A stretch of 64,000 nucleotides of DNA, taken from assembly GCF_003991155.1 (NCBI RefSeq), contig NZ_CP031293.1; one strand, written 5' to 3'. Both the position numbers and the translations under genes were made by a program. The notes under the pieces are model-generated. The model did not search any database. It saw only the letters and a list, made by a program, of their open reading frames with translations, and was not told the origin of the DNA. Shown piece by piece: positions 3,043 through 32,976 of this stretch (position 1 is the first letter of the stretch; each line of letters opens with the position of its first letter). The stretch is from Escherichia coli. GTDB taxonomy: Bacteria > Pseudomonadota > Gammaproteobacteria > Enterobacterales > Enterobacteriaceae.

Positions 3043-3051
3043 GCAATTCTC

Positions 3052-3597
<546 letters not shown>

Positions 3598-13981: not shown

Positions 13982-14431
13982 ATGAAGAAAGCAACACTTG
14001 TGATTGGCGTTATTGGCGCGGACTGCCATGCAGTAGGCAATAAAGTTCTGGACCGCGTTTTTAGCAACCATGGCTTCAGAGTCATTAATCTGGGCGTAAT
14101 GGTCAGCCAGGACGAATATATTGATGCGGCCATTGAAACTGGCGCTGACGCGATTGTCGTCTCCTCTATCTATGGGCATGGCGATATCGACTGTCTGGGC
14201 ATGCGCGAACGCTGCATCGAGCGTGGACTGGGGGACATCCTGCTCTATGTGGGCGGTAACCTGGTGGTCGGAAAACATGACTTCGCTGACGTGGAAACCA
14301 AATTCAAAGAGATGGGATTTGATCGCGTCTTTGCCCCAAGTCATGACTTAGAAGATGTTTGTCAGCTGATGGCACACGATATCAACCAACGTCATGACGT
14401 TGATACTCGTATTCTTGAAGAGGCAATCTGA
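13982..14431 (+). CDS. glmS: Glutamate mutase sigma (B12-binding) subunit
   Basis: ORF trimmed to ATG 13982 (AAGGA 7 nt upstream). [24 protein letters not shown] carries the DxHxxG cobalamin-binding motif. Size and position match clostridial MutS/GlmS. This is not the glucosamine-6-P synthase glmS. Confidence 0.9.
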
Positions 14432-15819
14432 TGCAAATCGTCTCTGTCGATATTGGATCGACGTGGACCAAAGCAGCCCTCTTCGCCCGGGAGGGGGATG
14501 CGTTAACGTTGGTTAACCACGTACTGACCCCAACCACCACCCATCATCTGGCGAAGGGGTTTTTCTCCAGCCTGAACCTGGTGTTAAACGTAGATAATGC
14601 CCTCCCCCTGTTTAACAACGGTGAGGTTGCATTGAAGTATTCCTCCTCTGCCAAAGGTGGGCTGGCGGTTGCCGCAATGGGATTGGTGCCTTCTATCACC
14701 CTGGAAACCGCGAAAGTAACCGCTCACTCTGCGGGGGCTAAAATTGCGCAATATTACGCCTACAAGCTGAACCGCCGTGATATCCAGGCACTGGAAGAAA
14801 CGCAGCCCGATATTCTCTTGTTCACCGGCGGCACCGACGGCGGAGAAGAAAGCTACGGCCTGAATAACGCCCGTGTGCTGGCAGAATCCAAACTCGACTG
14901 CGCCATTATTTATGCCGGAAACCGGGATATTCAGGACGAGGTGCAGGAGATCCTAGGGCATAAAGACCTGACCATCGTCGACAACGTTCTGCCCGATCTT
15001 GACCATCCGAACCCTTTAGCTGCACGCCAGGCTATCTGCGACATATTCCTTAAACGCATCGTTAAAGGGAAAGGGCTGGATGTCGTTGTTGATAAAACAG
15101 GCGAAGAACCAATGCCGACACCGTGGACAGTCTTTGAACTGGTTAAGGCAATCAGTAATGTCGATCACAGCTGGAAAGAGTTCATGCTGATCGACATGGG
15201 TGGCGCAACCACCGATGTCTATTCCGCCTGTGCCAACACGCTCTCGCCCGACACCGTTTTACACGGCGTACCGGAACCCTTCGTGAAACGGACGGTGGAA
15301 GGCGATCTGGGAATGCGCGTCTCGGCAATGGTGGTTGGTGAAAGTGCGAAAGAGTTAGTCAATGTGAATTTTGCTCAGCAACCCGCACAGCTGGACGCTT
15401 TTTATCATTACCTCCGTCATCTAGTCGCTCATCCCGACTACTTACCCGCGAATGCAGAAGAAAAATATTTCGATACCGTCCTGGCCGGACTGTGTGTGGG
15501 TTATGCCACCGAAAGACATGCGGGCACCAAAAAAGAGGTCTGCACCTGCGTCGGCAATGTCGATTTACAGATGGGACGTGACCTGACAACCGTGCGTAAA
15601 GTCGTCGGATCCGGCGGATGGCTCTCGCGTGCCAGTCAGTTCGATATGCATCACTGGTTGAAATACCGCGAGTTAAACGACGACGGTAAACGCATTCTCT
15701 TACCGACCGAATTTGAATATTACCGCGATTCCCGGGGGCTATTACCACTGCTGGCAAACGTCGCCAGAGTCGATCCGCTGGCCGCCGCGCGCACCAGTAT
15801 TCAATGCTTAACCCTATAA
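14431..15819 (+). CDS. glmL: Glutamate mutase-associated MutL/GlmL (putative reactivating chaperone, ASKHA-type ATPase)
   Basis: 462 aa, starting [18 protein letters not shown] (actin-like ATPase phosphate-1 motif). It sits between the S and E subunits exactly as in Clostridium, and its start is coupled to the preceding stop (TGATG). Confidence 0.85.
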   Translation: MQIVSVDIGSTWTKAALFAREGDALTLVNHVLTPTTTHHLAKGFFSSLNLVLNVDNALPLFNNGEVALKYSSSAKGGLAVAAMGLVPSITLETAKVTAHSAGAKIAQYYAYKLNRRDIQALEETQPDILLFTGGTDGGEESYGLNNARVLAESKLDCAIIYAGNRDIQDEVQEILGHKDLTIVDNVLPDLDHPNPLAARQAICDIFLKRIVKGKGLDVVVDKTGEEPMPTPWTVFELVKAISNVDHSWKEFMLIDMGGATTDVYSACANTLSPDTVLHGVPEPFVKRTVEGDLGMRVSAMVVGESAKELVNVNFAQQPAQLDAFYHYLRHLVAHPDYLPANAEEKYFDTVLAGLCVGYATERHAGTKKEVCTCVGNVDLQMGRDLTTVRKVVGSGGWLSRASQFDMHHWLKYRELNDDGKRILLPTEFEYYRDSRGLLPLLANVARVDPLAAARTSIQCLTL

Positions 15820-15837
15820 CAATTAAGGCTGCAATCA

Positions 15838-17283
15838 ATGGAACTTCGAAATAAGAAATTAACCCATGACGAATTCATGACCGAGCGGCAACAGGTACTG
15901 AAAACCTGGGAAACCGGCAAGGATGTTGAAAACTTTGAAGATGGCGTTAAATACCAACAAACCATTCCTGAGCATAAACGCTTCTCTCTTGCCCTGCTGA
16001 AAGCAGACAAGGAAGGTAAAACTCTTAGCCAACCGCGCGCAGGCGTGGCGCTGATGGACGAACACATCGAACTACTGAAAACACTACAAGAAGAGTGCGA
16101 TCTGCTGCCGAGCACCATCGATGCATATACCCGTCTGAATCGGTACGAAGAAGCGGCTGTAGGGATTAAAAAATCCATCGAAGCCGGAACCTCTAAACTG
16201 AACGGTTTACCGGTCGTTAACCACGGCGTCGCAGCTTGCCGTCGCCTCACCGAAACTCTGCAAAAACCGCTACAGATCCGCCACGGCACGCCAGATGCGC
16301 GTCTGCTGGCTGAAATCTCGATGGCCAGCGGCTTTACCAGTTATGAAGGCGGCGGCATTTCCTACAATATTCCGTATGCCAAGCGCGTAACGCTGGAAAA
16401 ATCGATCCGCGACTGGCAGTACTGCGACCGTTTAATGGGGATGTATGAAGAACACGGGATCCGCATCAACCGCGAACCGTTTGGCCCACTAACGGGTACC
16501 CTGATCCCGCCGTTTATCTCGCACTCTATCGCGATAATCGAAGGCTTGCTGGCGCTGGAACAGGGTGTGAAATCTATCACCGTTGGTTATGGACAGGTCG
16601 GCAGCCTGACGCAGGATGTTGCGGCGATCCAGTCTCTGCGTGAACTTGCACACGAATATTTTCAGAGCTATGGCTATACCGACTATGAATTAAGTACCGT
16701 GTTTCACCAGTGGATGGGCGGCTTTCCGGAAGACGAATCGAAAGCGTTCGCTATTATCTCCTGGGGCGCAGCCGTCGCGGGGATGTCTGGTGCCACCAAA
16801 GTCATCACCAAAAGTCCGCACGAAGCCTGGGGCATCCCGACTGCCGCTGCCAACATTCAGGGGCTGAAAGCCTCCCGCCAGATGCTCAACATGGTCAACG
16901 AGCAGAAATTCCCGCCGTGCCCTGCGGTTGAACTGGAAATTGAACTGATTAAGAGCGAGGTTCGCGCGGTACTGAATAAAGTGTTCGAACTGGGTAATGG
17001 TGATATTGCGCGCGGTACGGTGCTGGCATTTGAAGCGGGCGTACTGGATGTGCCGTTTGCGCCAGCCGCCTGCAACGCGGGCAAAATTCTTCCGGTCCGT
17101 GACAACACCGGCGCGATACGCGTACTGGAAGCCGGAGCCGTTCCATTGCCAAAAGATATTCTCGACCTCCACCACGATTACGTTGCGGAACGCGCACGCT
17201 TTGAAGGACGCCAACCGACATTCCAGATGGTTGTAGATGACATCAATGCTGTATCCCACAGTAAATTAATAGGAAGACCATAA
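15838..17283 (+). CDS. glmE: Glutamate mutase epsilon (catalytic) subunit
   Basis: 481 aa. It aligns along its length with remembered C. cochlearium GlmE (MEL+NKK...QPRAGVAL+DEHIELL...PSTIDAYTR.NRY...FHQWMGGFP.DESKAF...SFQMV+DDI). Confidence 0.93.
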   Translation: MELRNKKLTHDEFMTERQQVLKTWETGKDVENFEDGVKYQQTIPEHKRFSLALLKADKEGKTLSQPRAGVALMDEHIELLKTLQEECDLLPSTIDAYTRLNRYEEAAVGIKKSIEAGTSKLNGLPVVNHGVAACRRLTETLQKPLQIRHGTPDARLLAEISMASGFTSYEGGGISYNIPYAKRVTLEKSIRDWQYCDRLMGMYEEHGIRINREPFGPLTGTLIPPFISHSIAIIEGLLALEQGVKSITVGYGQVGSLTQDVAAIQSLRELAHEYFQSYGYTDYELSTVFHQWMGGFPEDESKAFAIISWGAAVAGMSGATKVITKSPHEAWGIPTAAANIQGLKASRQMLNMVNEQKFPPCPAVELEIELIKSEVRAVLNKVFELGNGDIARGTVLAFEAGVLDVPFAPAACNAGKILPVRDNTGAIRVLEAGAVPLPKDILDLHHDYVAERARFEGRQPTFQMVVDDINAVSHSKLIGRP

Positions 17284-18524
17284 TGAAAATAAAACAGGCT
17301 CTGTTCACCGCTGGCTACTCCTCATTCTATTTCGATGACCAGCAGGCGATAAAAAACGGAGCGGGTCATGACGGCTTTTTTTATACCGGGGAGCCGGTAA
17401 CACAGGGGTTTAACGCCGTTCGTCAGGCCGGGGAGTGCGTATCAGTACAGTTGATTCTGGAAAACGGCTCGGTCGCCGTAGGTGACTGTGCTGCCGTACA
17501 GTATTCCGGGGCAGGTGGTCGCGATCCACTGTTCCTCGCTGAGCACTTTATTCCGTTCCTCAACGACCATATCAAGCCATTACTGGTAGGCCGCGATGTG
17601 GATGCTTTCCTGCCGAATGCCCGTTTCTTCGACAAATTGCGTATTGACGGCAACTTGCTGCATACCGCCGTGCGCTACGGATTATCACAGGCGCTGCTTG
17701 ATGCTACCGCGCTGGCAACCGGCCGTCTGAAAACTGAAGTAGTTTGCGATGAATGGCAGTTGCCACGCGTGGCGGAATCCATTCCATTATTTGGTCAGAG
17801 CGGGGACGATCGATATATCGCCGTCGATAAGATGATCCTTAAGGGCATCGACGTGCTGCCCCATGCACTGATTAATAACGTCGAAGAGAAACTGGGCTTT
17901 AAAGGTGAAAAACTGCGCGAATATGTCCGCTGGCTGTCGGATCGTATTCTGAGCAAGCGCACCAGCGCACGCTACCACCCTACCCTGCACATCGATGTAT
18001 ACGGCACTATCGGTCTGATCTTCGATATGGATCCGCTTCGCTGTGCGCAATACATCGCCAGCCTGGAAAAAGAAGCGCAAGGCCTGCCGCTCTACATTGA
18101 AGGGCCGGTCGATGCCGGTAACAAGCCCGATCAAATTCGCCTGCTGACCGCGATTACCAAAGAGCTGACGCGCCTCGGTTCCGGCGTGAAAATTGTGGCC
18201 GATGAATGGTGTAACACCTACCAGGATATTGTTGATTTCACTGATGCCGCCAGTTGTCACATGGTGCAAATCAAAACCCCGGATCTGGGCAGTATTCACA
18301 ACATCGTCGATGCGGTTCTTTACTGCAACAGCCACAGCATGGAAGCGTACCAGGGCGGCACCTGCAATGAAACTGATGTCAGTGCCCGCACCTGTGTCCA
18401 CGTCGCCCTTGCCGCTCGCCCTATGCGTATGCTGGTAAAGCCAGGGATGGGCTTTGACGAAGGCCTCGATATCGTCTTCAACGAAATGAATCGTACTATC
18501 GCGCTGTTGCAGGCTAAGGATTAA
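17283..18524 (+). CDS. mal: 3-Methylaspartate ammonia-lyase (methylaspartase)
   Basis: 413 aa. MKIKQALFTAGYSSFYFDDQQAIKNGAGHDGF matches the clostridial MAL N-terminus; enolase-superfamily fold. TAATG start/stop coupling with glmE. Confidence 0.92.
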   Translation: MKIKQALFTAGYSSFYFDDQQAIKNGAGHDGFFYTGEPVTQGFNAVRQAGECVSVQLILENGSVAVGDCAAVQYSGAGGRDPLFLAEHFIPFLNDHIKPLLVGRDVDAFLPNARFFDKLRIDGNLLHTAVRYGLSQALLDATALATGRLKTEVVCDEWQLPRVAESIPLFGQSGDDRYIAVDKMILKGIDVLPHALINNVEEKLGFKGEKLREYVRWLSDRILSKRTSARYHPTLHIDVYGTIGLIFDMDPLRCAQYIASLEKEAQGLPLYIEGPVDAGNKPDQIRLLTAITKELTRLGSGVKIVADEWCNTYQDIVDFTDAASCHMVQIKTPDLGSIHNIVDAVLYCNSHSMEAYQGGTCNETDVSARTCVHVALAARPMRMLVKPGMGFDEGLDIVFNEMNRTIALLQAKD

Positions 18525-18527
18525 CAA

Positions 18528-19898
18528 ATGGCTCGTTCTTTTAAAGTCTTATCGCCAACGGCAATCCTCGGGTATGGATTCCCGGAAGAGAGCTTCCGCA
18601 AAGCGATGGCAGAATCGCCCGATCTGATCGCCGTTGATGCAGGCTCTTCCGATCCTGGCCCCCACTACCTCGGAGCGGGCAAACCGTTTACCGATCGCGC
18701 AGGGGTCAAGCGCGATCTGCGCTATATGATCACCGCAGGCGTGCAAAATAATATACCGGTGGTGATCGGAACAGCTGGCGGTTCTGGTGCCGCACCACAC
18801 CTGGAGTGGTGCCGAGAAATAATTCATGAGATTGCCCGGGAAGAGCGACTCGTGTTCTCGATGGCGCTGATCCCGGCAGACGTTGACAAAGCCATCGTCC
18901 ACCAGGCGCTGGATAACGGCAAAATCACGGCGCTGGATTTTGTCCCGCCGTTAACCCACGACGCGATTGACGAAAGTACGTATATCGTTGCGCAAATGGG
19001 CATCGAACCCTTCCAGCGGGCGCTGAAAGAAGGCGCGCAAGTGGTGCTGGGCGGGCGCGCTTACGACCCGGCCTGCTTTGCTGCGCTCCCGATCATGCAA
19101 GGCTTTGATGAAGGTCTGGCGCTGCATTGTGGGAAAATCCTTGAATGCGCGGCAATCGCCGCAACGCCCGGCTCAGGCTCTGACTGTGCGATGGGCATCA
19201 TTGATGACAACGGCTTTACGCTGAAGACATTTAATCCGAAGCGTAAATTTACCGAAACGTCAGCGGCTGCACACACACTGTATGAGAAATCCGATCCCTA
19301 CTTCCTGCCTGGACCTGGCGGCGTGTTGAACCTGAAAGGCTGCACATTTAAAGCGGTCAATGACGGCGAAGTGTACGTCAGCGGTTCTAAGCATGAAGAA
19401 ACGCCGTATGCCCTGAAACTGGAAGGTGCGCGACGGGTGGGCTTCCGCTGTCTGACCATCGCAGGAACGCGCGACCCGATCATGATCGCCGGGATCGATA
19501 AAATCATCGATGAAGTCAAAACCAGCGTTTCACGTAACCTGTCGCTCGACGATGACAGCATTCGCATCAATTTCCACCTGTACGGCAAAAACGGGGTGAT
19601 GGGCGACCATGAACCGATGCAAACTGCCGGGCATGAGCTGGGGATTGTCCTTGATGTAGTTGCACCGACCCAGGAAATTGCCAATAGCGTTTGCTCGCTG
19701 GTGCGCTCTACCATGCTGCACTACGGCTATGAAAACCGCATCGCTACCGCAGGCAATCTGGCGTTCCCGTTCTCCCCTTCTGATATCCAGGGCGGGCCGG
19801 TATACGAATTTTCCATATATCACCTGATTGAAGCCAACGACGCTCTGCGTTTTGATTTCCATATTGAACAGGTGACGCCAGAAGGAGTTCAGGCATGA
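18528..19898 (+). CDS. Conserved protein of unknown function, tentatively DUF1446/AtuA-like
   Basis: 456-aa ORF starting 3 nt after the mal stop. I recognise no catalytic motif. The family assignment is tentative and rests on pairing with the downstream DUF4387-like ORF. Confidence 0.8.
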   Translation: MARSFKVLSPTAILGYGFPEESFRKAMAESPDLIAVDAGSSDPGPHYLGAGKPFTDRAGVKRDLRYMITAGVQNNIPVVIGTAGGSGAAPHLEWCREIIHEIAREERLVFSMALIPADVDKAIVHQALDNGKITALDFVPPLTHDAIDESTYIVAQMGIEPFQRALKEGAQVVLGGRAYDPACFAALPIMQGFDEGLALHCGKILECAAIAATPGSGSDCAMGIIDDNGFTLKTFNPKRKFTETSAAAHTLYEKSDPYFLPGPGGVLNLKGCTFKAVNDGEVYVSGSKHEETPYALKLEGARRVGFRCLTIAGTRDPIMIAGIDKIIDEVKTSVSRNLSLDDDSIRINFHLYGKNGVMGDHEPMQTAGHELGIVLDVVAPTQEIANSVCSLVRSTMLHYGYENRIATAGNLAFPFSPSDIQGGPVYEFSIYHLIEANDALRFDFHIEQVTPEGVQA

Positions 19899-20212
19899 AA
19901 CAGTCAATTGTCTCACTGGCGCAAGTCATTCGTTCGAAAAATGCCGGACCTTACGAACTGGTTTTAGATATTTTATTTAAAACGAAAGAAAACTATGAGC
20001 GAGTTAAATCATCAGGGCAATTAACCCCAGAACTGATTGCGCGCTTATATCATGTTGAACCTGACTTTATTCACCGTATTGTCTGGTTTGATCCTTCTAA
20101 CGCAGTAAAAATCGTCATGCCACGAGATATTATCTCCGGGAATGTAGGTGACAATGATGTCTATGGTGCACAGCAACATGCACCTTTATTAAATATGAGT
20201 TTCGATTTGTAA
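19895..20212 (+). CDS. Conserved small protein, tentatively DUF4387 (AtuA C-terminal-like)
   Basis: 105 aa with an ATGA overlap onto the preceding ORF. The motifs IRSKNAGPYEL and DVYGAQQHAPLL resemble what I recall of DUF4387. Confidence 0.75.
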   Translation: MKQSIVSLAQVIRSKNAGPYELVLDILFKTKENYERVKSSGQLTPELIARLYHVEPDFIHRIVWFDPSNAVKIVMPRDIISGNVGDNDVYGAQQHAPLLNMSFDL

Positions 20213-20372
20213 AAATCCGAATACTTTTAGCCAACTGACATCCCGTCACTTATTGCAGTTCAACACTTCAGCTATTTGTAAGGTTGTAATAGCAGGTAGA
20301 TGCCTGAATCTCTATTCAGGCATCTACTTCTCCTGATTCTGATTTATCGCCGTGCACCTGATGGAGGAAAAA

Positions 20373-21653
20373 ATGAAGAAAATAAGTTTAACCACGATGA
20401 TTCTTTTGGCGCTGGTACTTGGAATGATTATCGGCGTAGTGCTCAATAACACTGCTTCACCGGAAACCGCAAAACTCTATGCGCAAGAAATATCGATATT
20501 CACGACGATTTTCTTACGACTGATAAAAATGATTATCGCTCCGTTAGTGGTCTCTACCCTGGTGGTAGGTATAGCTAAAATGGGAGATGCCAAAGCCCTT
20601 GGTCGTATTTTTTCTAAAACACTCTTTTTATTTATTTGCGCCTCATTGCTGTCAATTGCCTTAGGCTTGATAACGGTAAATTTCTTCATGCCAGGCACAG
20701 GAATTAATTTTGTTGCACACGGTGCCGAAACCACCGGAGTGGTCGCGTCAGAACCCTTTACACTAAAAGTATTTATTTCGCATGCTTTCCCCACCAGCAT
20801 TGTCGATGCCATGGCACACAATGAAATTTTGCAAATCGTGGTGTTCTCAATTTTCCTCGGCTGTAGCCTGACGGCGATTGGTGAGAAAGGCAGCGCCATC
20901 GTTCACGCCTTAGATTCGCTGGCACATGCCATGTTAAAGCTCACTGGCTACGTCATGCTCTTCGCTCCCCTGACCGTATTCGCCGCTATTTCAGCATTGA
21001 TTGCTGAACGAGGACTGGCAGTTATGGTGAGCGCCGGGATCTTTATGGGTGAATTTTATTTCACCATGTTGTTACTTTGGGTGCTGCTTATCGGTCTGGC
21101 CATCGTTTATGTCGGCCCCTGCATCAGACGCCTGACCCGTGCCCTTTCGGAACCCGCCCTGCTGGCATTTACCACATCCAGTTCTGAAGCGGCTTTTCCG
21201 GGAACGCTTGAAAAACTGGAGCAATTTGGCGTTTCCCCCAAAATTGCCAGCTTTGTCTTACCCATTGGCTACTCATTTAATCTCGTTGGATCAATGGCCT
21301 ACTGCTCCTTCGCCACAGTTTTCATCGCCCAGGCCTGCAATATCCATTTATCCATCGGTGAGCAAATCACCATGCTGTTGATCCTGATGTTGACCTCGAA
21401 AGGAATGGCTGGCGTACCACGCGCCTCAATGGTGGTTATCGCCGCCACGCTCAACCAGTTCAATATTCCGGAAGCGGGGCTGATCTTGCTGATGGGCGTT
21501 GATCCGTTCCTTGATATGGGGCGTTCCGCGACAAACGTCATGAGCAACGCAATGGGCGCTGCGATGGTGAGTCGGTGGGAAGGCGAACATTTCGGCGAGG
21601 GCTGTCGGGGTAAAGCATTAAAACCCAATGAATCGAACGTTGCTCTGCCCTGA
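20373..21653 (+). CDS. Dicarboxylate/amino acid:cation symporter (DAACS family, DctA/GltP-like)
   Basis: Start moved to ATG 20373 (GGAGG 5 nt upstream). 426 aa, polytopic, with TSSSEAAFP and GYSFNLVGS motifs typical of DctA/GltP carriers. Confidence 0.88.
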   Translation: MKKISLTTMILLALVLGMIIGVVLNNTASPETAKLYAQEISIFTTIFLRLIKMIIAPLVVSTLVVGIAKMGDAKALGRIFSKTLFLFICASLLSIALGLITVNFFMPGTGINFVAHGAETTGVVASEPFTLKVFISHAFPTSIVDAMAHNEILQIVVFSIFLGCSLTAIGEKGSAIVHALDSLAHAMLKLTGYVMLFAPLTVFAAISALIAERGLAVMVSAGIFMGEFYFTMLLLWVLLIGLAIVYVGPCIRRLTRALSEPALLAFTTSSSEAAFPGTLEKLEQFGVSPKIASFVLPIGYSFNLVGSMAYCSFATVFIAQACNIHLSIGEQITMLLILMLTSKGMAGVPRASMVVIAATLNQFNIPEAGLILLMGVDPFLDMGRSATNVMSNAMGAAMVSRWEGEHFGEGCRGKALKPNESNVALP

Positions 21654-21760
21654 GGGGGATCTTAAGCAATCAGAAGCCAATGACTACGCATTTTTATAAG
21701 CCGGATCATGAAGTTAGACGGCAATTAAGTAAAACTAACGTTTAAGGTGAAAAGTGAAAT

Positions 21761-23413
21761 ATGTCCAAACCATTTATCTGGCAAGAACCGTTTCTACAAA
21801 ATAAAGACGGTACAGAATATACATTAATTAGCGATCAACATATTACAGTAACGGAATTAGACGGCGAAGAAGTGATAAAAATCGCTCCTGAAGCATTAAC
21901 GCTGCTTGCCCGGCAGGCATTTTATGAAGCCTCTTTTTTCTTACGTTCCGCTCATTTGCAACAGGTCGCCAGCATTCTTAACGATCCGCACGCCAGTAGT
22001 AATGATAAATACGTTGCGTTGCAGTTATTACGTAATGCTGAAGTCTCAGCAAAAGGGGTATTACCCAACTGTCAGGATACCGGCACCGCAACTATTGTTG
22101 CCAGTAAAGGGCAACAGATATGGACCGGAGGTAACGACGCTGAAGCCTTAAGCAAAGGCATTTACACCACTTTTCAGGAAAATAATCTGCGCTTTTCACA
22201 AAATGCGCCACTGGATATGTATACCGAAGTCAATACGCAAACCAATCTACCGGCGCAGATTGATATCAGCGCCGTCGCTGGTGATGAGTACCATTTTCTC
22301 TGTATTAATAAAGGGGGCGGCTCTGCCAATAAAGCCGCGCTTTATCAGGAAACCAAATCCCTATTGCAACCAGAAAAACTGACCGCATTTTTAATCGAAA
22401 AAATGAAATCGCTGGGCACCGCTGCCTGCCCGCCTTACCACATCGCCTTTGTCGTCGGAGGGCTTTCAGCCGATCAAACCTTAAAAGTTGCCAAGCTGGC
22501 CTCAACGAAATATTACGACAATTTGCCCACCAGCGGAAACGAGCAAGGACAAGCATTCCGTGATATTGAGCTGGAAAAAGTATTGCTCGAGGCCAGTCAG
22601 CAATTTGGTATTGGTGCGCAATTTGGGGGTAAATATTTCGCTCATGATATTCGCGTCATTCGTCTGCCGCGTCACGGTGGCTCTTGCCCGATAGCTATGG
22701 CGCTCTCCTGTTCTGCGGATCGCAATATCAAAGCAAAAATTAACAAGCACGGTATCTGGCTGGAAAAACTCGAACACAATCCGGGGCAATATATTCCAGC
22801 CTCACTGCGGGAAGAAAATCACGCGCAACATGTACAGCTGGATCTAAACCGTCCGTTGCGTGACGTGATGCAGGATCTCGCCAGATTACCGGTAGGCACC
22901 CGCGTGTCGTTAAGTGGTCCCATCGTAGTGGCGCGCGATATCGCCCACGCCAAAATAAAAGCGCGGCTGGATAGCGGCGAACCGATGCCGGATTACCTGA
23001 AGCATCATATTGTCTATTACGCTGGCCCGGCGAAAACACCGGAGAACATGGCCTGCGGTTCACTGGGTCCAACCACGGGCGGTCGAATGGACGGTTATGT
23101 CGATACCTTCCAGGCGGCTGGCGGCAGTCTGGTGATGTTATCGAAAGGTAACCGCAGCCAGCAGGTCACCGATGCCTGTCACAAACATGGCGGCTTCAAT
23201 CTGGGGAGTATTGGCGGTGCAGCTGCGTTACTGGCGCAAGAATATGTCAAAAGTCTGCGTTGCCTGGAATACCCGGAGCTGGGTATGGAAGCGGTGTGGA
23301 TGATGGAAGTGGAAAATTTACCCGCATTCATCCTGGTAGATGATAAAGGCAATAATTTCTTTAGTCAGTTTGAGCAGCAACACCGCTGCGCCAGTTGCCC
23401 TGCGGGACATTAA
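21761..23413 (+). CDS. fumD: Class I (Fe-S) fumarate hydratase paralogue, probable mesaconase
   Basis: 550 aa, FumA/FumB-like ([19 protein letters not shown]). Its position in a methylaspartate operon matches the FumD mesaconase/fumarase described for E. coli O157:H7. Confidence 0.88.
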
Positions 23414-23422
23414 GGAAAATGA

Positions 23423-24025: not shown

Positions 24026-24028
24026 TAA

Positions 24029-24060
24029 CTGCGCCTGGCATCCCGCCAGGCGCAGGTTTT
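24029..24060. terminator. Hairpin terminator between the convergent adenosyltransferase and LysR genes
   Basis: ctgcgcctggc-atccc-gccaggcgcag followed by gtttt, immediately after the 24025 stop. Confidence 0.7.
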
Positions 24061-24964: not shown

Positions 24965-24981
24965 AATGCCTTCCCTTAAAA

Positions 24982-25234: not shown

Positions 25235-26905
25235 TTATTTTTGATTTATAGCATATCCTTCTAAGAATTTTTGCGAAGCTGCAATATCTGGGGTAAAGAC
25301 CCGATCCTGGTCGACAAACGGCACGACTTTTCTGTATTCGGTAAACATTGCTTTGGTGGATTTCCCTAATGCCAGTTGTGGATCGGCCTGCAACCGTAAA
25401 TCGAGAGCCTGTGCGGAATGCATCAGTTCAATGCCATAAATCACGTTCAGATTATCGACAACCTGTTTCAATCTTCTGGCCGCGTGGTCATTATTGGCAC
25501 CGGTATCTTCTATACCTCCGGCAACCGGTTGAATATCGAAAGAAACCGGGTTAGCGAGATCGACATTTTCCGCATGCAGCGCAACAAACGGGATATGTAA
25601 TGAACCGAAGCCATGACCTTTATTACCTGCTGCCGACAGGAAGCGTGACAAACCGGTAAAGTGATCATCTTCAAGATGCAGCGAGCGGCGCATACTGTTA
25701 TGTGAAACATGCACTAACGCCACGGTCAGACGCTGGGTGGCAAGCGCAACCGGTAACGATTCGAAATTCGCCGTCGGGAAGATCCCACCGCTGATTGCCC
25801 CATCTTTAACAAAATATTGCGCGACCTGACTGGAGTCCTGATACGCTTTGTCTGCATTCAGCACGGTTGCCGGGTTGTCATCGGAACTGTTGATCTGCAC
25901 GGTAATGGTATCTTCAGCATCGCGCAACGCGCGCATTGCCTCAGAAATGGTATACACCGTCGTTCTGAACGATAACGGATCCTGCAATGCACGTTTGTCA
26001 TGCTTATGCCATAAATAAGAACCACTTAACGCATCGCGAATCTCTTTAGCGGAATCAGCCAACTGCGGGAAAGGACGCACGGCGATCGACTGCGGCAGTA
26101 CCGGCGCGACATTGCCATTCAACGCTTCCAGACTCATAGCGAAAACCACCGGGCTGACATTCAGCAACTGACGTGCCGAACGAACAGCTTCGATAGCGTA
26201 GGCTGTCCCGACGCTGTTGTTCGATAAAATCGCCAGCATATCTTTACCCTGCGGTACCAGTGGCTTAAGTCCCACTTTCGCCAGCGCGTCACCACCGCTC
26301 ATTTGCACGCCATTTACTCGGGCTTTCCATTCCCCCATCATCACCAGACCAACGTGCGAAGCGAGCATAATATCCGCTGCGCCGATACTTCCCCGCACCG
26401 GAATTAACGGTGTAACGCCGCGATTAATAAATTCGGCATACAACTCGGCAATATAAGGCTGTGCGCCGGTTTGCCCATGCAGCATGGTATTTAAACGTAA
26501 TACCATTGAAAGGCGTGCCAGATAATCCGGTAACATCGGACCAACGCCCGCAGAATGGGCGCGCAGCGCGGCAGCATTAAATTTTTTCGACGCGTCAATC
26601 ACCTCAGGCGTTAAATTTCCTTTGGCATCAAATATGGGCTGATCTTTATTTAGCCCCACGCCCACGGTTAAGCCATAAACAGGCGTACCTGAATGCGCGG
26701 CAGTCATCACCAGATCATAACTTTTTTCCATGCGCTCCATGGCGTTCGACGCGATTTTGACGCCGTTATCACCTAATGCAATTGACCAGGCCTGGTCAAT
26801 GGAAAGATGTTCGCCATCCAGCGTAATGGTTGATTTCGCCATCGCAATGGAGCAAACGCTCCAGAGCACAACGGTGACAGTGACTCTTCGTATCAATCCT
26901 TTCAT
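25235..26905 (-). CDS. Secreted (periplasmic) histidine/phenylalanine ammonia-lyase-fold protein lacking the MIO Ala-Ser-Gly triad
   Basis: 556 aa with AAGGA 6 nt upstream. Sec signal MKGLIRRVTVTVVLWSVCSIAMA|KS. It aligns to HutH (YGLTVGVG, LRAHSAGVG, QDPLSFR, DDNP), but GSVGASGDLAPLAH is replaced by GSIGAADIMLASH. Confidence 0.85.
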   Translation of the reverse strand: MKGLIRRVTVTVVLWSVCSIAMAKSTITLDGEHLSIDQAWSIALGDNGVKIASNAMERMEKSYDLVMTAAHSGTPVYGLTVGVGLNKDQPIFDAKGNLTPEVIDASKKFNAAALRAHSAGVGPMLPDYLARLSMVLRLNTMLHGQTGAQPYIAELYAEFINRGVTPLIPVRGSIGAADIMLASHVGLVMMGEWKARVNGVQMSGGDALAKVGLKPLVPQGKDMLAILSNNSVGTAYAIEAVRSARQLLNVSPVVFAMSLEALNGNVAPVLPQSIAVRPFPQLADSAKEIRDALSGSYLWHKHDKRALQDPLSFRTTVYTISEAMRALRDAEDTITVQINSSDDNPATVLNADKAYQDSSQVAQYFVKDGAISGGIFPTANFESLPVALATQRLTVALVHVSHNSMRRSLHLEDDHFTGLSRFLSAAGNKGHGFGSLHIPFVALHAENVDLANPVSFDIQPVAGGIEDTGANNDHAARRLKQVVDNLNVIYGIELMHSAQALDLRLQADPQLALGKSTKAMFTEYRKVVPFVDQDRVFTPDIAASQKFLEGYAINQK

Positions 26906-26955
26906 TGTGTTTCCTTATCATGATGAGTTTAACAACGGGTTACTGCGACAACGTT

Positions 26956-27906
26956 TTAATTTGTTCTATCTGTTTTCCCCCGCCGGACAATACTGGTCAC
27001 CAGGCGAGCGGCAACTTTCGCAGTTAAATTATCGCGGTCCAGGTCCGGGTTAAGTTCGGCAATATCCGCAGCAATCAACTTCTCGCTACCGGCGATTAAA
27101 TTCACAATGGCTTCAGTAATATTTAACGGCACGCCTAACGGTGATGGAGCAGAAACACCGGGCGCCTGATAACCTGGTAAAACATCGAGACAAATCGTTA
27201 AATAAATGGCGTCACAAGCCTGAATATCTGCCGAGAGCGCATTAGCGATCTCATGCAAACCACGTTCAAATTGCAGAGATTCGTCCAGCCAATAACGCAC
27301 ACCGAGACAATCAGCGCGATCAAATAACGCCTGAGTATTGGCAAAACGACTTATTCCCAGCACGCGATAATGAAACGGTTTGCCATGCTGCGCGTTCCAC
27401 TCTTGCATCTGACGAAACGGCGTACCTGAATTGGCTTGTTCCGCCATCCGTAAATCAAAATGCGCGTCAAGGTTCACAATCAGTAACCGCTGAATATCCG
27501 GACGCGACTGCATAATCCCCTGAAATGTTCCCCACGCCACTTCATGACCGCCCCCCAGAACCACCGGTAAACTGCCGCGCGCAATGGCTGTAGATACGTT
27601 AGCCGCCAGACGATTTTGTGCGGATTCCAGCGCGTGGTCCTCGCTTTGTACATCGCCCATATCGAAAATAGCGCCTTCACAGAGCACTGGCATATTTCCC
27701 AACATGCTGCGCAACGCGCCCGGTCCGCCTGCTGCACCCGCTCGCCCATCATTACGTTGCACTCCGTCATCAACGGCAAAACCAATCAGCGTACAACCGC
27801 CGTGGCTTTGTTCACTAAACGGTTGCACATGCTGATGCCAGCGAGTGCTGATGCCGGTTTCCTGCGAGTCAACACGCCCACTCCACGGCAAAAATGTTTG
27901 CTTCAT
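26956..27906 (-). CDS. hutG: Formimidoylglutamase (arginase fold)
   Basis: Start trimmed to ATG 27906 (AAGGAG upstream; TAATG overlap with the hutI stop). 316 aa with Mn-site motifs GGGHEVAWG, DAHFD and CLDVL. Confidence 0.88.
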   Translation of the reverse strand: MKQTFLPWSGRVDSQETGISTRWHQHVQPFSEQSHGGCTLIGFAVDDGVQRNDGRAGAAGGPGALRSMLGNMPVLCEGAIFDMGDVQSEDHALESAQNRLAANVSTAIARGSLPVVLGGGHEVAWGTFQGIMQSRPDIQRLLIVNLDAHFDLRMAEQANSGTPFRQMQEWNAQHGKPFHYRVLGISRFANTQALFDRADCLGVRYWLDESLQFERGLHEIANALSADIQACDAIYLTICLDVLPGYQAPGVSAPSPLGVPLNITEAIVNLIAGSEKLIAADIAELNPDLDRDNLTAKVAARLVTSIVRRGKTDRTN

Positions 27907-29117
27907 TACCAACTCCTTTTTCCGCCGACAATAAGCCCCTGGCAAGGCTGATGCCCAAACCAGTAAGCCAGTTCACGTGGATGATTAAGATCCCAGACCG
28001 CCATATCCGCCCGTAATCCCGGTGCAAGTTCACCCCGGTCAATAAGTCCAAGTGCCTTTGCCGCATTACGCGTAACGCCCTGAACGGCTTCCAGCGGCGT
28101 CATGCGAAACAGCGTACAGGCCATATTGATCATCAATGGCAATGACATATTGGGAGACGTTCCGGGATTATGGTCCGTGGAGATAGCAATCGGCACACCT
28201 GCGGCCCGCAGAGCGACAATCGGCGGCAGATGGGTTTCGCGCAGGAAGTAATAAGCACCGGGAAGCAAAACCGCCACTGTTCCAGCCGCTTTCATGGCGG
28301 CGATCCCCGACTCGCTCAGGTACTCCAGATGATCGCAGGAGAGTGCAGAAAACGCCGCTGCCAGCGCCGCGCCTTGCTGGTCAGAAAGCTGTTCGGCATG
28401 CAGTTTTACAGGTAATCCATAGCTTTGCGCTTTACTGAAAACGCGCCGTACCTGCTCTGGAGTAAAGGCGATGTTTTCACAAAAAGCATCAACTGCATCA
28501 ATCAGCCCCTGTTCATGCAACACGCACATCCAGTCGCAAAGCGCCGTAATGTAATCATCACTGCGCCCGGCAAACTCTGGCGGCAGGCTGTGCGCCCCGA
28601 GAAACGTAGACTGAATATGTAACCCGGTAGATTGCTGCAAGCGGCGGATCACGCGTAAACAACGTGCTTCATCTTCCAGCGTTAAGCCATAACCCGATTT
28701 GATTTCAAGCGTACTGACGCCTTCACGTTGCCAGTTTCGCAGTCGCTGCGCCGCCAGTTCAAACAACTGTGTTTCGCTGGCTGCCCGCGTGGCATTAACC
28801 GTAGATAAGATCCCGCCGCCCGCTCTGGCGATATCTTCATAAGCCACGCCTTGCAACCGCATCTCAAACTCGTTCGCCCTCTGGCCGCCATACACCAGAT
28901 GTGTATGACAATCCACCAGACCGGGTGTCAGCAACTTACCCTGTAGATCGTGTTCCTCTGTAATATCAGCCGTCAGTTCACGGGGGATCTGCGTGGCCTT
29001 CCCAAGCCAGACAATCGAGTCACCACGGCTGATTAATGCCCCCTTTTCAATCACTCCCCAATCGTTAGCGGAAAGCGTCGCCAGCGTGGTATTTCGCCAG
29101 AGCGTTAATGCACTCAT
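27906..29117 (-). CDS. hutI: Imidazolonepropionase
   Basis: Start trimmed to ATG 29117 (ATGA overlap with the hutD stop). 403 aa; VDCHTHLVYGG metal site; amidohydrolase fold. Confidence 0.9.
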   Translation of the reverse strand: MSALTLWRNTTLATLSANDWGVIEKGALISRGDSIVWLGKATQIPRELTADITEEHDLQGKLLTPGLVDCHTHLVYGGQRANEFEMRLQGVAYEDIARAGGGILSTVNATRAASETQLFELAAQRLRNWQREGVSTLEIKSGYGLTLEDEARCLRVIRRLQQSTGLHIQSTFLGAHSLPPEFAGRSDDYITALCDWMCVLHEQGLIDAVDAFCENIAFTPEQVRRVFSKAQSYGLPVKLHAEQLSDQQGAALAAAFSALSCDHLEYLSESGIAAMKAAGTVAVLLPGAYYFLRETHLPPIVALRAAGVPIAISTDHNPGTSPNMSLPLMINMACTLFRMTPLEAVQGVTRNAAKALGLIDRGELAPGLRADMAVWDLNHPRELAYWFGHQPCQGLIVGGKRSW

Positions 29118-29704
29118 AAGGATTTTTCCCCTCGTAGATAATAAAGCCACCAGCCCGCCAGCTCACCGACGGAGACTTTCTTCCGTGGTACGAAACGCCA
29201 GGGCCTGCCATCAGGTGCAACCAGCCATAACAACATATTTGCCGCGACAAACACCCTTTTCTTGCCGCTTATCCACTCCCCTTCACACAGCGTGAACAGG
29301 CCCGCTTGCGCAAGTGACGGAGGACGCCAGTCAACGGCACTTTGCACCCGCAACATCCCCGCATCGCCTTCCCGCGCCATAACATTCAGATCGCGAACCC
29401 CGCCGCCCAGCAGCTGGCAATCAGGCATAGCTTCTCCAGGGAAAATTAAGGCGGGATCGTGACGTTGCAGGTTGATGATCGAATCGGCAAACGTTAGCTT
29501 CACCCCTTCCCCGTCGAGAATCGCGAGGCCACGAACCACGCCAGGCCACGCTGAAAAAGAGCCATCCTGACTGACATTCGCCATACTGATGCGCAACAAC
29601 CAGTTTTCATCATCGGGCCAGGCAAGCAGCTGTCGGGTAAACCCCCCGCCGTTGCGCCACGGTTGCAGCGGCTTATCCATTGCAGAAATCAGCATCGGTT
29701 CCAT
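29114..29704 (-). CDS. hutD: HutD-family protein
   Basis: 196 aa. The WRNGGGFTRQL motif and bicupin size are typical of HutD. It starts 1 nt after the permease stop. Confidence 0.8.
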   Translation of the reverse strand: MEPMLISAMDKPLQPWRNGGGFTRQLLAWPDDENWLLRISMANVSQDGSFSAWPGVVRGLAILDGEGVKLTFADSIINLQRHDPALIFPGEAMPDCQLLGGGVRDLNVMAREGDAGMLRVQSAVDWRPPSLAQAGLFTLCEGEWISGKKRVFVAANMLLWLVAPDGRPWRFVPRKKVSVGELAGWWLYYLRGEKSL

Positions 29705-29705
29705 A

Positions 29706-31115
29706 TTAAGACTCGGGATAAATCGTATAAGCAGGAACGCAGGTGGTGCGTTTGGCCCACGGGTAATAGATAACGGCGGTAATTAACAAGCCGACAATCC
29801 AGGAGATATCCGCCCCATCCATCAGGACAGAAATGGGTCCCTGATACAGTTTTTGATTCAGGAAGGGGATCTGCACCAACACGCCTACGCCATAGCACGT
29901 CAAAGCGGTTTTGTTATACGCGCCATAACGCCCTTCCGGGGTATAAAGTGCCGGAATATCGGTTTTACCTTGTGAGATGAAGTAGTAGTCGATGAGATTA
30001 ATGGCGCTCCACGGCACAAATACCGTCAACAGCAGCAGAACGAAGTTTTTGAAATTATTCAAAAAATCTGCGCTTGCCGCCAGCGCGACGACCATCGACA
30101 ACAGCACGAACCCTACAACGTAGGCAGCACGAACACGCTGTGAAACCTGACTGCGATTATTAAAGGCGCTGACGGTCGCCAGAATCGACATAAAGCCACC
30201 GTAGGCATTCAAACAGTTCACCGTCAGTTTGCCGCAAACAATCACCGTATAAATCAGAATGGCGAAGGTGGGTCCGGCTAACTCACCCATAAAACCAACC
30301 TGATCCTTCAGGAAGTTAGCACCACAGGCCGCAACAAGCACGCCAAACGTCATGGCACATTGCGCGCCAAGCGTGGTTCCCAGAAAGGTGGCAAAGAAGA
30401 TTGATTTTGCTGGCGTATCAGAGGGTAAATAGCGGGAATAATCAGAGGCGTAAGGGGCAAACGTTAATTGCCATCCGGCAGAGAGAGCAATCGTTAATAA
30501 AAAGACCGACAGACTAAATGGCTTTTGACCAAATGCCGCAGCCACATCGTAGTGACCGCTAAGTTGAGTGGCCAGGTAAATAAACCCCAGAATACTTAAT
30601 ATCCCTGCAACACGGCCAACGACGTGAATAAGTTTATAACCGACCAATGCGATCATCGCGGTCAGCATGCCGAAAATAATAATTCCGGTCGATGCCGATT
30701 CGAAACCAAATATCCGGTTAATCGCCTGACCGGATAATACTGTACCCGTCGCGGCAAATCCAAGGTACATAATAATCACCATCAGTAACGGTAGCGCCGC
30801 TCCTTTAACGCCAAAGCGGATACGACTGGAGATCATCTGGGGTAATCCCAGCTTTGCCCCCTGCGACGAGTGCAATGCCATTACTGCACCACCAATAATA
30901 TTACCGATTAATAAACCAATTATTGCTGACATGGCTTCGGAGCCAAAAATAATCGCTAACGCGCCGTCCACCACAGCGGTAATTTGTAAGTTAGCACTTA
31001 GCCATAAAGTAAACTGACTGGATGGCGAGCCGTGGCGAGCAGACTCAGGAACGGCGTTAATCGTATTTGATTCTAATACTGGCTTTTTACTGCGGATAGG
31101 GCTGCTTGATTCCAT
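29706..31115 (-). CDS. NCS1/purine-cytosine permease family transporter, candidate urocanate importer
   Basis: Start trimmed to ATG 31115 (AGGAG 8 nt upstream). 469 aa, about 12 TM segments. Pseudomonas hut clusters carry an NCS1 permease next to hutU that has been linked to urocanate uptake. Confidence 0.8.
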   Translation of the reverse strand: MESSSPIRSKKPVLESNTINAVPESARHGSPSSQFTLWLSANLQITAVVDGALAIIFGSEAMSAIIGLLIGNIIGGAVMALHSSQGAKLGLPQMISSRIRFGVKGAALPLLMVIIMYLGFAATGTVLSGQAINRIFGFESASTGIIIFGMLTAMIALVGYKLIHVVGRVAGILSILGFIYLATQLSGHYDVAAAFGQKPFSLSVFLLTIALSAGWQLTFAPYASDYSRYLPSDTPAKSIFFATFLGTTLGAQCAMTFGVLVAACGANFLKDQVGFMGELAGPTFAILIYTVIVCGKLTVNCLNAYGGFMSILATVSAFNNRSQVSQRVRAAYVVGFVLLSMVVALAASADFLNNFKNFVLLLLTVFVPWSAINLIDYYFISQGKTDIPALYTPEGRYGAYNKTALTCYGVGVLVQIPFLNQKLYQGPISVLMDGADISWIVGLLITAVIYYPWAKRTTCVPAYTIYPES

Positions 31116-31278
31116 GAAAAAGTCTCCTGCAAAATGAGAGGTCATTTTTTGAAACAGCAATAGAGGGTCGGGAGATATTTCTCTCGACGATGTAAAAATA
31201 TTTTTTGATAATTATTGTTATACAGGCGAATTATTCTCCGCCTGTATTAGCGCAAATATTAAATGACGGCGTTAATAT

Positions 31279-32976
31279 TTAGCGAATCATCGGTAATTTC
31301 AGACCATAGTTTTTGGCACATTCAATTGCCGCTTCATAACCCGCATCCGCATGACGCATAACCCCGGACGCACAGTCATTCACCAGCACACGCGCCAGAC
31401 GTTTTTCGGCTTCTTCGCTACCATCGGCAACAATAACCATCCCGGCGTGTTGTGAATACCCCATCCCGACGCCGCCGCCATGATGCAGGGATACCCACGT
31501 TGCTCCCCCTGCAGTGTTGAGCAAACCGTTGAGCAACGGCCAGTCAGAAACCGCATCACTGCCATCAAGCATGCTTTCGGTTTCGCGGTTCGGGCTGGCG
31601 ACAGAACCGGTATCAAGATGATCGCGCCCAATCACAATCGGTGCTTTTAGTTCACCGTTGCGCACCATTTCGTTGAATGCCAGCCCCGCCAGGTGACGCT
31701 CACCAAGCCCCAGCCAGCAAATACGTGAAGGAAGTCCCTGGAAGGCAATGCGCTCGCGCGCCATATCCAGCCAGCGATGCGTCAGTACGTTATTGGGGAA
31801 CAACTCTTTAATTTTGGCATCAGTTTTATAGATATCTTCCGGGTCGCCAGACAGCGCCACCCAACGGAATGGACCTTTGCCTTCACAAAACATTGGACGA
31901 ATATAAGCCGGAACAAAGCCCGGGAAATCAAAGGCATTTTGCAGACCTTCGTTGAAGGCCACCTGGCGGATGTTGTTGCCATAATCGACAACCGGGATCC
32001 CCATCGCCTGGAAGTCCAGCATCCCCTGAACATGTGCGACGCAGCTCTGTGCCGCTTCTTTTTGCAATCTGGCGTGTTGCTGTGGATCCTGCTGTGCAGC
32101 GCGCCATTGTTCTACGCTCCAGCCCATCGGTAGGTAGCCATAAACCAGATCGTGAGCGGAAGTCTGGTCGGTCACCAGATCCGGCTTGATCGCCCCCTGA
32201 CGTGCACGTTTCACCAGTTCAGGAACAATTTCCGCCGCATTGCCCAACAGCGCGATTGAAACAGCGTCTTTGCGCTCAGTATGGTATTTAATCAGCGCCA
32301 GTGCATCATCGAGATCTTTCGCTTGTTTATCGACATAACGGGTACGCAGACGGAAGTCGATGCTACTTTGCTGGCACTCGATATTTAATGAACACGCCCC
32401 CGCCAGAGTCGCCGCCAGCGGTTGTGCACCGCCCATACCACCTAGCCCTGCGGTCAGGATCCATTTTCCACTCAGCGAATTGTTGTAGTGCTGACGACCC
32501 GCTTCAACAAAGGTTTCGAACGTTCCCTGCACAATGCCCTGACTACCGATGTAGATCCACGAGCCAGCGGTCATCTGGCCGTACATGAACAGACCTTTAC
32601 GATCCAGTTCATTGAAATGATCCCAGTTGGCCCATTGCGGTACCAGGTTAGAGTTGGCAATCAATACGCGCGGCGCATCGGTATGCGTTTTAAACACGCC
32701 TACGGGTTTACCGGACTGAACCAGCAGTGACTCATCAGCTTCCAGATTTTTCAGTGATTCAAGGATTTTGTCAAAACACTCCCAGTTACGTGCCGCACGA
32801 CCAATACCACCATACACCACCAGATGCTGTGGATTTTCGGCAACGTCGGGATCAAGGTTGTTCTGCAACATCCGATAGGCAGCTTCGATCTGCCAGTTTT
32901 TGCAGTGCAGCTGCGTACCGTGTGGCGCATGGATTACACGGCTGGTATCAATACGCGGGTCTGAAGGCTTACTCAT
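31279..32976 (-). CDS. hutU: Urocanate hydratase
   Basis: Start trimmed to ATG 32976 (AGGAGA upstream). 565 aa with the [18 protein letters not shown] site. Urocanase family throughout. Confidence 0.93.

Follow-up and report, generated by a model that had tools for sequence, protein, structure and literature searches.

The window analysed here is a stretch of 64,000 nucleotides (nt) of an Escherichia coli chromosome (NCBI RefSeq assembly GCF_003991155.1, contig NZ_CP031293.1). Its central element is a catabolic island, flanked by cydA on the 5′ side and sucD on the 3′ side in the RefSeq annotation, in which a methylaspartate (glm) block for glutamate and a hut block for urocanate face one another. 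On balance, we favour the reading that the island consists of two separable catabolic modules which meet at L-glutamate, with the hut module fed by an exported betaine lyase. Module 1 (13982-24964) comprises the glm genes, a carrier and a LysR gene, while module 2 (25235-32976) comprises the hut operon and the lyase. This reading draws on the identities and neighbourhoods of the genes, and on a lyase with a predicted signal peptide which lacks both the residues that form the 4-methylideneimidazole-5-one (MIO) cofactor of histidases and the lysine of ergothionases, encoded together with a canonical urocanate hydratase. A preliminary description of the region had instead proposed a single route running from urocanate or histidine via glutamate to citramalate.

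The gene map is based on a listing of open reading frames (ORFs), scans against NCBIfam and Pfam, and the RefSeq annotation of an identical E. coli chromosome, all of which agree. The two blocks are convergent, one running on the plus strand from glmS to cobO (13982-24025) and the other on the minus strand from hutU (32976) down to the LysR gene. The junctions within the blocks are overlaps of 1-4 nt or gaps of 10-50 nt, as is typical of operons. All genes named in the preliminary description are present and intact, and its end coordinates, 13982 and 32976, are the exact RefSeq starts of glmS and hutU. NCBIfam equivalog cut-offs are passed by glmS, glmL, glmE, the methylaspartate ammonia-lyase, the class I fumarase, cobO, hutU, hutI and hutG, while HutD, the NCS1 permease, the SDF carrier and the LysR protein were identified through Pfam or below-cut-off NCBIfam matches. 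The convergent layout is likewise borne out, with a strong hairpin (24029-24055) between the cobO and LysR stops, as is the site between the cyd and suc operons, given the cydA and sucD flanks. Three genes had, however, been overlooked, encoding an AtuA-family protein (18528-19898), a DUF4387 protein (19895-20212) and a HAL/PAL-family protein (25235-26905, minus strand). The last of these lies, together with the LysR gene, between the two blocks, where the LysR gene alone had been placed.

The hut block and its predicted exported lyase

The features of the hut block are as follows:

25235-26905, minus strand: MIO-less HAL-fold lyase (trimethylammonia-lyase family), 556 amino acids, last gene of the hut operon (PF00221, 413 bits)
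26956-27906, minus strand: hutG, formimidoylglutamase yielding glutamate and formamide (TIGR01227, 292.5 bits; cut-off 229)
27906-29117, minus strand: hutI, imidazolonepropionase (TIGR01224, 451 bits; cut-off 298)
29114-29695, minus strand: HutD/Ves-family protein (Pfam PF05962, 107 bits)
29706-31115, minus strand: NCS1 permease, probable urocanate importer, HutTu-like (PF02133)
31279-32976, minus strand: hutU, canonical urocanate hydratase (TIGR01228, 934 bits)
32977-33733, unstranded: upstream region of hutU, AT-rich (38% GC), without a regulator gene of its own

The operon is transcribed in the order hutU-NCS1-hutD-hutI-hutG-lyase, and thus contains six genes rather than the five first assigned to it, the 556-amino acid lyase gene being located 50 nt downstream of hutG. 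HutU scores 948 bits against the Pseudomonas putida urocanase 1UWL and shares 81% amino acid identity with the HutU proteins of canonical clusters. With the thiourocanate hydratase model it reaches 670 bits, below the cut-off of 930. Orthologs of the NCS1 permease (65-72% identity) occur inside canonical clusters ordered hutU-NCS1-hutH-hutD-hutI, and HutTu (PA5099) of Pseudomonas has been named a urocanate-specific transporter (PMC12977541). The products of the block, glutamate and formamide, include the substrate of the glm block, as originally described.

No MIO-type histidase (HutH) is encoded in the block, the part of the genome that was searched for one, and its sole HAL-family gene scores 281 bits on TIGR01225 (cut-off 539). 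Between cydA and sucD there is also no gene for a HutC (GntR/UTRA) repressor, such as is present in the canonical loci L020, L021 and L027 of our comparison set. The block was thus correctly called hutC-less. To call it hutH-less is accurate as regards the MIO-type histidase, but the block does have a probable entry enzyme, namely the predicted exported lyase of the ergothionase family. Histidine, which had been proposed as an input, cannot enter, as the block encodes no MIO histidase and the Ala-Ser-Gly triad is missing from its lyase.

The closest match to the lyase in the PDB is the ergothionase of Treponema denticola (6S7J; 290 bits), followed by the histidase of Pseudomonas putida (174 bits). 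An AlphaFold model of the protein (mean predicted local distance difference test score: 88.8) likewise has 6s7j as its top Foldseek match (template modelling score: 0.91; 34-35% identity), the histidases ranking below it (28% identity). Where histidases, including the HutH proteins of canonical clusters, have the motif GSVGASGDL, the lyase has GSIGAADIM (residues 172-180). The Ala-Ser-Gly triad is missing, so the MIO cofactor cannot form, and the triad is found in none of 90 aligned homologs. Members of the HAL fold that lack MIO need a trimethylammonium leaving group, according to two preprints. The catalytic Tyr77, the carboxylate binders Gln308, Arg314 and Asn339 and the imidazole binder Glu466 are invariant among the 90 homologs, and the second imidazole binder, His117, is conserved in at least 90% of them. 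In the Treponema enzyme, Lys384 binds the thiolate of ergothioneine and is essential, as reported in the same preprints. The corresponding position in the E. coli lyase is Ile438, preceded by His437. A lysine-bearing motif, [ILV]QK, occurs in 76 of the 90 homologs, and [LI]H[IV] in thirteen, which comprise the proteins of E. coli and E. marmotae (96% identical to each other), two metagenomic proteins and an Enterococcus group.

The N-terminus of the lyase, MKGLIRRVTVTVVLWSVCSIAMA/KS, is built like a Sec signal peptide, with n, h and c regions and an AXA cleavage site. The first ATG is preceded, at a distance of 9 nt, by AGGA, a Shine-Dalgarno sequence that has no counterpart ahead of Met22. 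A leader of the same architecture is present in all Gram-negative homologs, while the Enterococcus homologs start at the mature domain. The lyase is therefore predicted to be Sec-exported and periplasmic. Twin-arginine export (Arg6-Arg7) was rejected, as a homolog with 85% identity lacks the RR pair.

In the proposed route, a histidine betaine, for which hercynine is the simplest candidate, would be split in the periplasm by the lyase into urocanate and trimethylamine. The NCS1 permease would then import the urocanate, and HutU, HutI and HutG would convert it to glutamate and formamide. A histidine betaine is the most likely substrate because HutU is canonical. Lys-bearing lyases from Pseudomonas lundensis and Serratia served as a control and were found to adjoin a thiourocanate hydratase (1000 and 989 bits, respectively; cut-off 930). 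Lys-bearing lyases are thus paired with thiourocanate hydratase and the Lys-less E. coli lyase with urocanase, which indicates that lyase and neighbouring hydratase are of corresponding types in the loci examined. In the metagenome locus L011, furthermore, a lyase with 85% identity directly follows the NCS1 gene, in the slot occupied by hutH in canonical clusters. Inward transport by the permease and a flow of material from the hut module into the glm module are likewise inferred.

Relatives of the lyase and of the hut genes are found in several other settings. In P. lundensis (L006, 6843-11626) and Serratia (L007 and L008), a gene for a thiourocanate hydratase passing NF058530 is located approximately 1.4 kb upstream of the gene for a Lys-bearing, MIO-less lyase with a signal peptide, an arrangement suggestive of an ergothioneine cluster whose first step is periplasmic. 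Two Enterococcus loci (L013 and L014, 5518-12554) encode a leaderless lyase (61% identical; motif SLHVP) in a putative operon with a sigma-54 activator, a fused CoA-transferase, a major facilitator superfamily transporter and an NMO/IMPDH-like flavoenzyme. Locus L012 (5567-18345) encodes a lyase with a signal peptide and the same motif (68% identical) within a cluster resembling those for hydroxyproline catabolism, which includes an amino acid permease, a DHDPS-like protein, an aldehyde dehydrogenase, a proline racemase family protein and D-amino acid dehydrogenase subunits. Locus L024 (1-5660) carries a hutU fragment at the contig end followed by NCS1-hutI-IclR-hutG-hutD, its NCS1 permease being 81% identical to that of the window, and is apparently an operon for urocanate alone, accompanied by an IclR-type regulator gene.

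The glutamate block and the LysR gene

The features of the glm block and of the adjoining junction are as follows:

13982-14431, plus strand: glmS, methylaspartate (glutamate) mutase subunit S, B12-binding (NF002612, 253 bits; cut-off 110; RefSeq start)
14431-15819, plus strand: glmL, mutase accessory/reactivating protein (NF040745, 508.5 bits; cut-off 475)
15838-17283, plus strand: glmE, methylaspartate mutase subunit E (TIGR01503, 865 bits; cut-off 390)
17283-18524, plus strand: methylaspartate ammonia-lyase (TIGR01502, 544 bits; cut-off 286)
18528-19898, plus strand: cmlA, AtuA-family subunit of citramalate lyase (Pfam PF07287; PDB 9ERQ/9EVF chain A, 972 bits, residues 1-456)
19895-20212, plus strand: cmlB, DUF4387 subunit of citramalate lyase (Pfam PF14330; PDB 9ERQ chain B, 193.5 bits)
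20373-21653, plus strand: SDF-family dicarboxylate/amino acid:cation symporter (below the cut-offs for DctA, 314 versus 513, and GltP, 304 versus 638)
21761-23413, plus strand: fumD, class I fumarase/mesaconase (NF011921, 1286 bits; cut-off 1060; 98.7% identical to the O157:H7 copy)
23423-24025, plus strand: cobO, cob(I)alamin adenosyltransferase (TIGR00708, 246.6 bits; cut-off 168)
24029-24055, unstranded: GC-rich hairpin with an 11-bp stem (9 G-C pairs), separating the convergent cobO and LysR stops
24059-24964, minus strand: LysR-family regulator (GcvA-like), found with the glm block in several genera

Judged by its gene content, the plus-strand operon is a complete and already known methylaspartate pathway, and the chemistry first ascribed to its named genes holds. 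Glutamate would be converted to methylaspartate by GlmS and GlmE, with reactivation by GlmL and supply of the coenzyme by CobO. Methylaspartase would release ammonia to give mesaconate, FumD would hydrate mesaconate to (S)-citramalate, and CmlAB would cleave the latter into pyruvate and acetate. CmlA and CmlB are encoded between the methylaspartase and the carrier and show full-length matches to the PDB entries 9ERQ/9EVF, which bear the depositor names "Citramalate lyase, subunit A (cmlA)" and "subunit B (cmlB)". In a 2026 preprint, the two-subunit Cml of Raoultella planticola, a gift of the Berg laboratory, was used to cleave citramalate directly into pyruvate and acetate. The CmlA family is large, with 443 representatives (one per 50%-identity cluster) at E ≤ 1e-30 in a HMMER search. 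As CmlAB is encoded in the operon, the pathway runs from glutamate to pyruvate and acetate and does not stop at citramalate, which the preliminary description had taken as its end point.

The glutamate half of the island is thus already known, and is better characterised than had been assumed. Kronen and Berg (2015; PMC4682846) described the glm cluster, which they found in O157:H7 and 26.5% of E. coli strains, and showed FumD to be a mesaconase, in agreement with the earlier remark that these genes had been noted in O157:H7. They left the fate of citramalate open, having found neither citramalate lyase activity nor an inducing condition; cmlA and cmlB supply the missing answer.

The glm block is self-contained, since it has its own carrier, which is kept in the glm clusters of Salmonella, Citrobacter and Yersinia, and in Citrobacter also its own glutaminase. 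In Citrobacter sp. Cb080 (L017, 13309-14310) the glutaminase gene is located between the carrier gene and fumD, suggesting glutamine as an input there. In Salmonella LR134141 (L015, 19246-20637), glmL is split into three ORFs, while it is intact in L016; this is probably a pseudogene or a sequencing frameshift.

The LysR gene had been viewed as a hinge shared by the two blocks. In Salmonella, Citrobacter and Yersinia its orthologs (63-86% identity) adjoin cobO/fumD, close to glm, mal, cmlAB and the carrier gene. In the clusters examined in these genera, including the Salmonella cluster next to sucD, no hut genes adjoin the glm block. The conservation of the LysR gene beside a glm block without hut genes in three genera indicates that it belongs to the glm block. 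The hairpin between the cobO and LysR stops is likely to be a bidirectional terminator, and further hairpins are present between the lyase stop and the LysR start. As regards a shared operator, exact 10-12-mers and T-N11-A palindromes in the upstream regions of glmS, hutU and the LysR gene did not exceed the numbers in shuffled controls.

Distribution of the blocks and alternative readings

Among 5,426 complete E. coli genomes, the glm block is present in 1,138 and the hut block in 144. An intact hut block adjoining the glm block is found in 143 genomes (~2.6%), at 97.2-100% identity to the window, while none of the 5,426 has a hut block without a glm block. The adjacency is therefore not confined to one strain, a point on which the original proposal had been made to depend. 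To judge by deletion scars, it formerly extended to many more genomes and to E. whittamii. A scan of species-representative genomes with the lyase returned only distant relatives and the E. whittamii scar, and no other genus with the composite of hut and glm.

A scar of the O157:H7 type, comprising the last 46 lyase codons, a second lyase fragment and a fragment of an rtcB-like gene, is present in 836 of the glm-positive genomes. The scar in E. whittamii differs, lyase codons 453-556 being fused to a hutU fragment. The two distinct scars indicate that the composite island is old in Escherichia and that the hut block was lost through at least two deletions that spared the glm block; the adjacency arose in an Escherichia ancestor. 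A further 145 glm-positive genomes retain the rtcB-like gene and have 463 bp of unrelated filler, as in ETEC1738. This AT-rich filler (L023, 13485-13947) stands in the place of the hut block and has no match in the window, and the state may be either pre-insertion or a replacement. A segment of 128 nt of the filler also matches the sdhB-sucA intergenic region of Salmonella and may be an enterobacterial repetitive intergenic consensus-like repeat.

The obligate coupling of the two blocks in the original proposal does not survive these losses; the coupling is shown by adjacency only, dedicated functional coupling is a possibility, and the modules are not an obligate unit. It is doubtful, in our view, that the two operons form one co-selected, co-regulated module leading from urocanate or histidine through glutamate to methylaspartate under the LysR protein as common regulator. 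In its favour, one block makes what the other consumes, the pair is found side by side in 143 genomes at 97-100% identity across lineages, hut never occurs without glm, and the hut block has no regulator of its own, with the LysR gene lying 271 nt downstream on the same strand. However, histidine has no entry enzyme, the LysR gene and glm block occur without hut in three other genera, and the hut block is absent from 981 of the 1,138 glm-positive E. coli genomes (836 with scars and 145 with filler). The glm operon also has a carrier of its own and, in the Citrobacter version, a glutaminase, the LysR start is separated from the lyase stop by hairpins, and the glmS and hutU promoter regions share no motif. 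We also regard as unlikely the proposal that hut-positive strains of the IAI39 type possess a single 19-kb anaerobic route from hercynine to acetate and pyruvate, with co-induced operons and a lyase which, through promiscuity, is also the "ergothionase" of 1962.

Several observations weigh against two separable modules fed by a histidine betaine lyase. The residue replacing Lys384 is Ile, after His437, and not the Asn of the sole characterised histidine betaine lyase, while SO_3299, with Gln at this position, takes N(pi)-methyl histidine betaine and not histidine betaine (preprints). Given that Asn and this inactivity of the Gln-bearing SO_3299 on histidine betaine, the missing lysine does not define the substrate. 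Other members of the LH[IV] subclade (Enterococcus and locus L012) have no hut neighbours, and the closely related L024 block has no lyase at all, which shows that the hut genes can form an ordinary urocanate operon without it. In some database entries the lyase begins at Met22, which would make the protein cytoplasmic. Kronen and Berg (PMC4682846) neither induced the glm cluster nor obtained anaerobic growth on glutamate. Finally, the hut-positive genomes are also glm-positive (143/143), as dependence would predict; the nesting of hut within glm fits dependence, and linkage and common descent fit it equally well.

The possibility that the hut block is a mere urocanate-scavenging operon, whose lyase uses some unrelated betaine or persists as a decaying passenger, appears distinctly unlikely. 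The lyase-free hutU?-NCS1-hutI-IclR-hutG-hutD order of L024, the NCS1-lyase pair of L011 (both proteins 85% identical), which stands beside a hutU remnant only, and the non-hut neighbours of subclade members in other taxa are all consistent with it. Yet the lyase ORF is intact in the window and annotated as full-length in every hut-positive genome listed, it follows hutG at a distance of 50 nt in the same orientation, no catalytic or imidazole-binding residue has been lost, and the L011 lyase fills the canonical hutH slot. Wolff reportedly found an ergothionase in E. coli in 1962. That the lyase is this long-sought enzyme, converting ergothioneine to trimethylamine and thiourocanate while the hut genes handle other urocanate, is in our view highly improbable, although ergothionase is its closest solved relative, 76 of the 90 homologs have the ergothionase lysine, and His437 beside Ile438 might replace that lysine as thiolate ligand. 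The 1962 activity is also left without an assigned gene, since a 2026 paper states that E. coli genomes lack an ergothionase homolog and hence doubts Wolff's enzyme. Against this identification, Lys384, reported as essential, is Ile in the E. coli lyase, and lyases with the lysine have a thiourocanate hydratase as neighbour. Here neither a thiourocanate hydratase nor a desulfhydrase is encoded nearby, HutU scoring 670 against the cut-off of 930. A periplasmic lyase for a histidine betaine remains the reading we prefer.

Additional genes and features can be observed around the two blocks. Between cydA and glmS are two low-GC (34-38%) ORFs of 314 and 140 amino acids (11988-12932 and 13013-13435, plus strand), for which no Pfam, NCBIfam or PADLOC match was obtained. 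They travel with the island in O157:H7 (93% and 99% identical, respectively) and are annotated upstream of glmS in ETEC1738 as well. The genome of strain 2016C-3878 (L001, 4420-5117) carries an IS1A element upstream of glmS that is lacking in the window, and is otherwise 100% identical. An RtcB-family gene of 465 amino acids (33734-35131, plus strand) is located between hutU and sucD, of which only a fragment is left in O157:H7. Its product matches the NCBIfam model "release_rtcB" below the cut-off and over residues 214-464 only, no prfH-like partner was seen, and PADLOC returned nothing for it. Seven consecutive tRNA genes and a CpoB/ybgF thermometer element (1386-3151, minus strand) are usual for this region of the E. 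coli chromosome, while a strong AT skew at 5001-6000 overlaps a 421-amino acid ORF (5033-6298, minus strand), putatively tolA by its position.

Significance and comparison with known systems

The novelty originally claimed for the island does not extend to the glutamate half. For the hut half, no description was found in the literature searched, the lyase bearing the PGAP label "HAL/PAL/TAL family ammonia-lyase" beside hut genes, and the betaine-fed hut variant appears undescribed. To our knowledge, E. coli is usually regarded as unable to use histidine, while approximately 2.6% of the complete E. coli genomes encode a full pathway from urocanate to glutamate. The 2026 statement on ergothionase homologs needs revisiting, as hut-positive E. 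coli genomes hold such a homolog, and the report of 1962 can be tested through a named gene. The lyase family was described only in 2019-2026 and has hitherto been tied either to respiration with urocanate or thiourocanate or to the pathway of ergothioneine. Two preprints list the genera with lyase-flavocytochrome clusters, and Escherichia is missing from these lists. If the proposed route is correct, the pairing of the lyase with an importer and HutU/I/G, rather than with a periplasmic reductase, would represent an assimilatory use of the family. Some E. coli strains would then make trimethylamine from hercynine derived from mushrooms and ergothioneine, which bears on the literature on trimethylamine N-oxide, and hut-positive strains might be able to turn a dietary betaine anaerobically into acetate, pyruvate, ammonia, formamide and trimethylamine.

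The glm block of the window matches the O157:H7 cluster together with CmlAB, with an identical gene set and order at the same site next to sucD and proteins sharing 98.5-100% identity. The glm clusters show no difference of substance, and O157:H7 has only scars of the hut block. Fermentation in Clostridium tetanomorphum follows the same chemistry, from glutamate to pyruvate and acetate via glutamate mutase and methylaspartase. In the window, however, the mesaconase is the single-chain class I fumarase FumD, and the citramalate lyase is of the AtuA/DUF4387 type and not a CitDEF-like complex. The clostridial clusters described in PMC4682846 also have no linked hut genes, unlike the window.

Among the relatives of the lyase, Swoo_3913 of Shewanella woodyi, compared here through its preprint description (bioRxiv 10.1101/2025.08.13.670108), is a specific histidine betaine lyase with Asn at the Lys384 position. 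Both are MIO-less HAL-fold proteins assigned to the periplasm, as is SO_3057 in the preprints. The Shewanella enzymes reportedly reach kcat/Km values of about 10^6 M-1 s-1. Tyr77, His117, Gln308, Arg314 and Asn339 are kept with the same numbering, the ergothionase lysine is replaced by a neutral residue, and the urocanate formed is, or in E. coli would be, used by neighbouring genes. The replacing residue is, however, Asn439 in Swoo_3913 and Ile438, preceded by His437, in E. coli, so that the two differ at the position where Asn would have been expected. Shewanella respires with urocanate as electron acceptor, reducing it in the periplasm by a genetically coupled urocanate reductase, whereas the E. 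coli block has no flavocytochrome or UrdA gene, and its NCS1 importer and HutU/I/G suggest assimilation to glutamate. The ergothionases 6S7J and SO_3057 similarly have no MIO and share the catalytic Tyr and the carboxylate and imidazole binders. They differ from the E. coli lyase in the thiolate-binding Lys384, which is absent from the latter, and the hydratase encoded beside the E. coli lyase is a urocanase rather than a thiourocanate hydratase.

The canonical hut operons of Comamonas testosteroni (L020), of metagenomes (L022 and L027) and of Pseudomonas (with HutTu) have the same gene order apart from hutH, with amino acid identities of 81% for HutU, 65-69% for the NCS1 permease, 56-58% for HutI and 33-36% for HutD. 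These clusters encode HutC and an MIO-dependent cytoplasmic histidase (GSVGASGDL), which shares 27-30% identity with the E. coli lyase, whereas the E. coli block has neither, and has hutG and the lyase added at its 3′ end. From its gene content, the E. coli operon looks like a canonical cluster from which the cytoplasmic histidase is gone and to which an exported trimethylammonia-lyase has been added.

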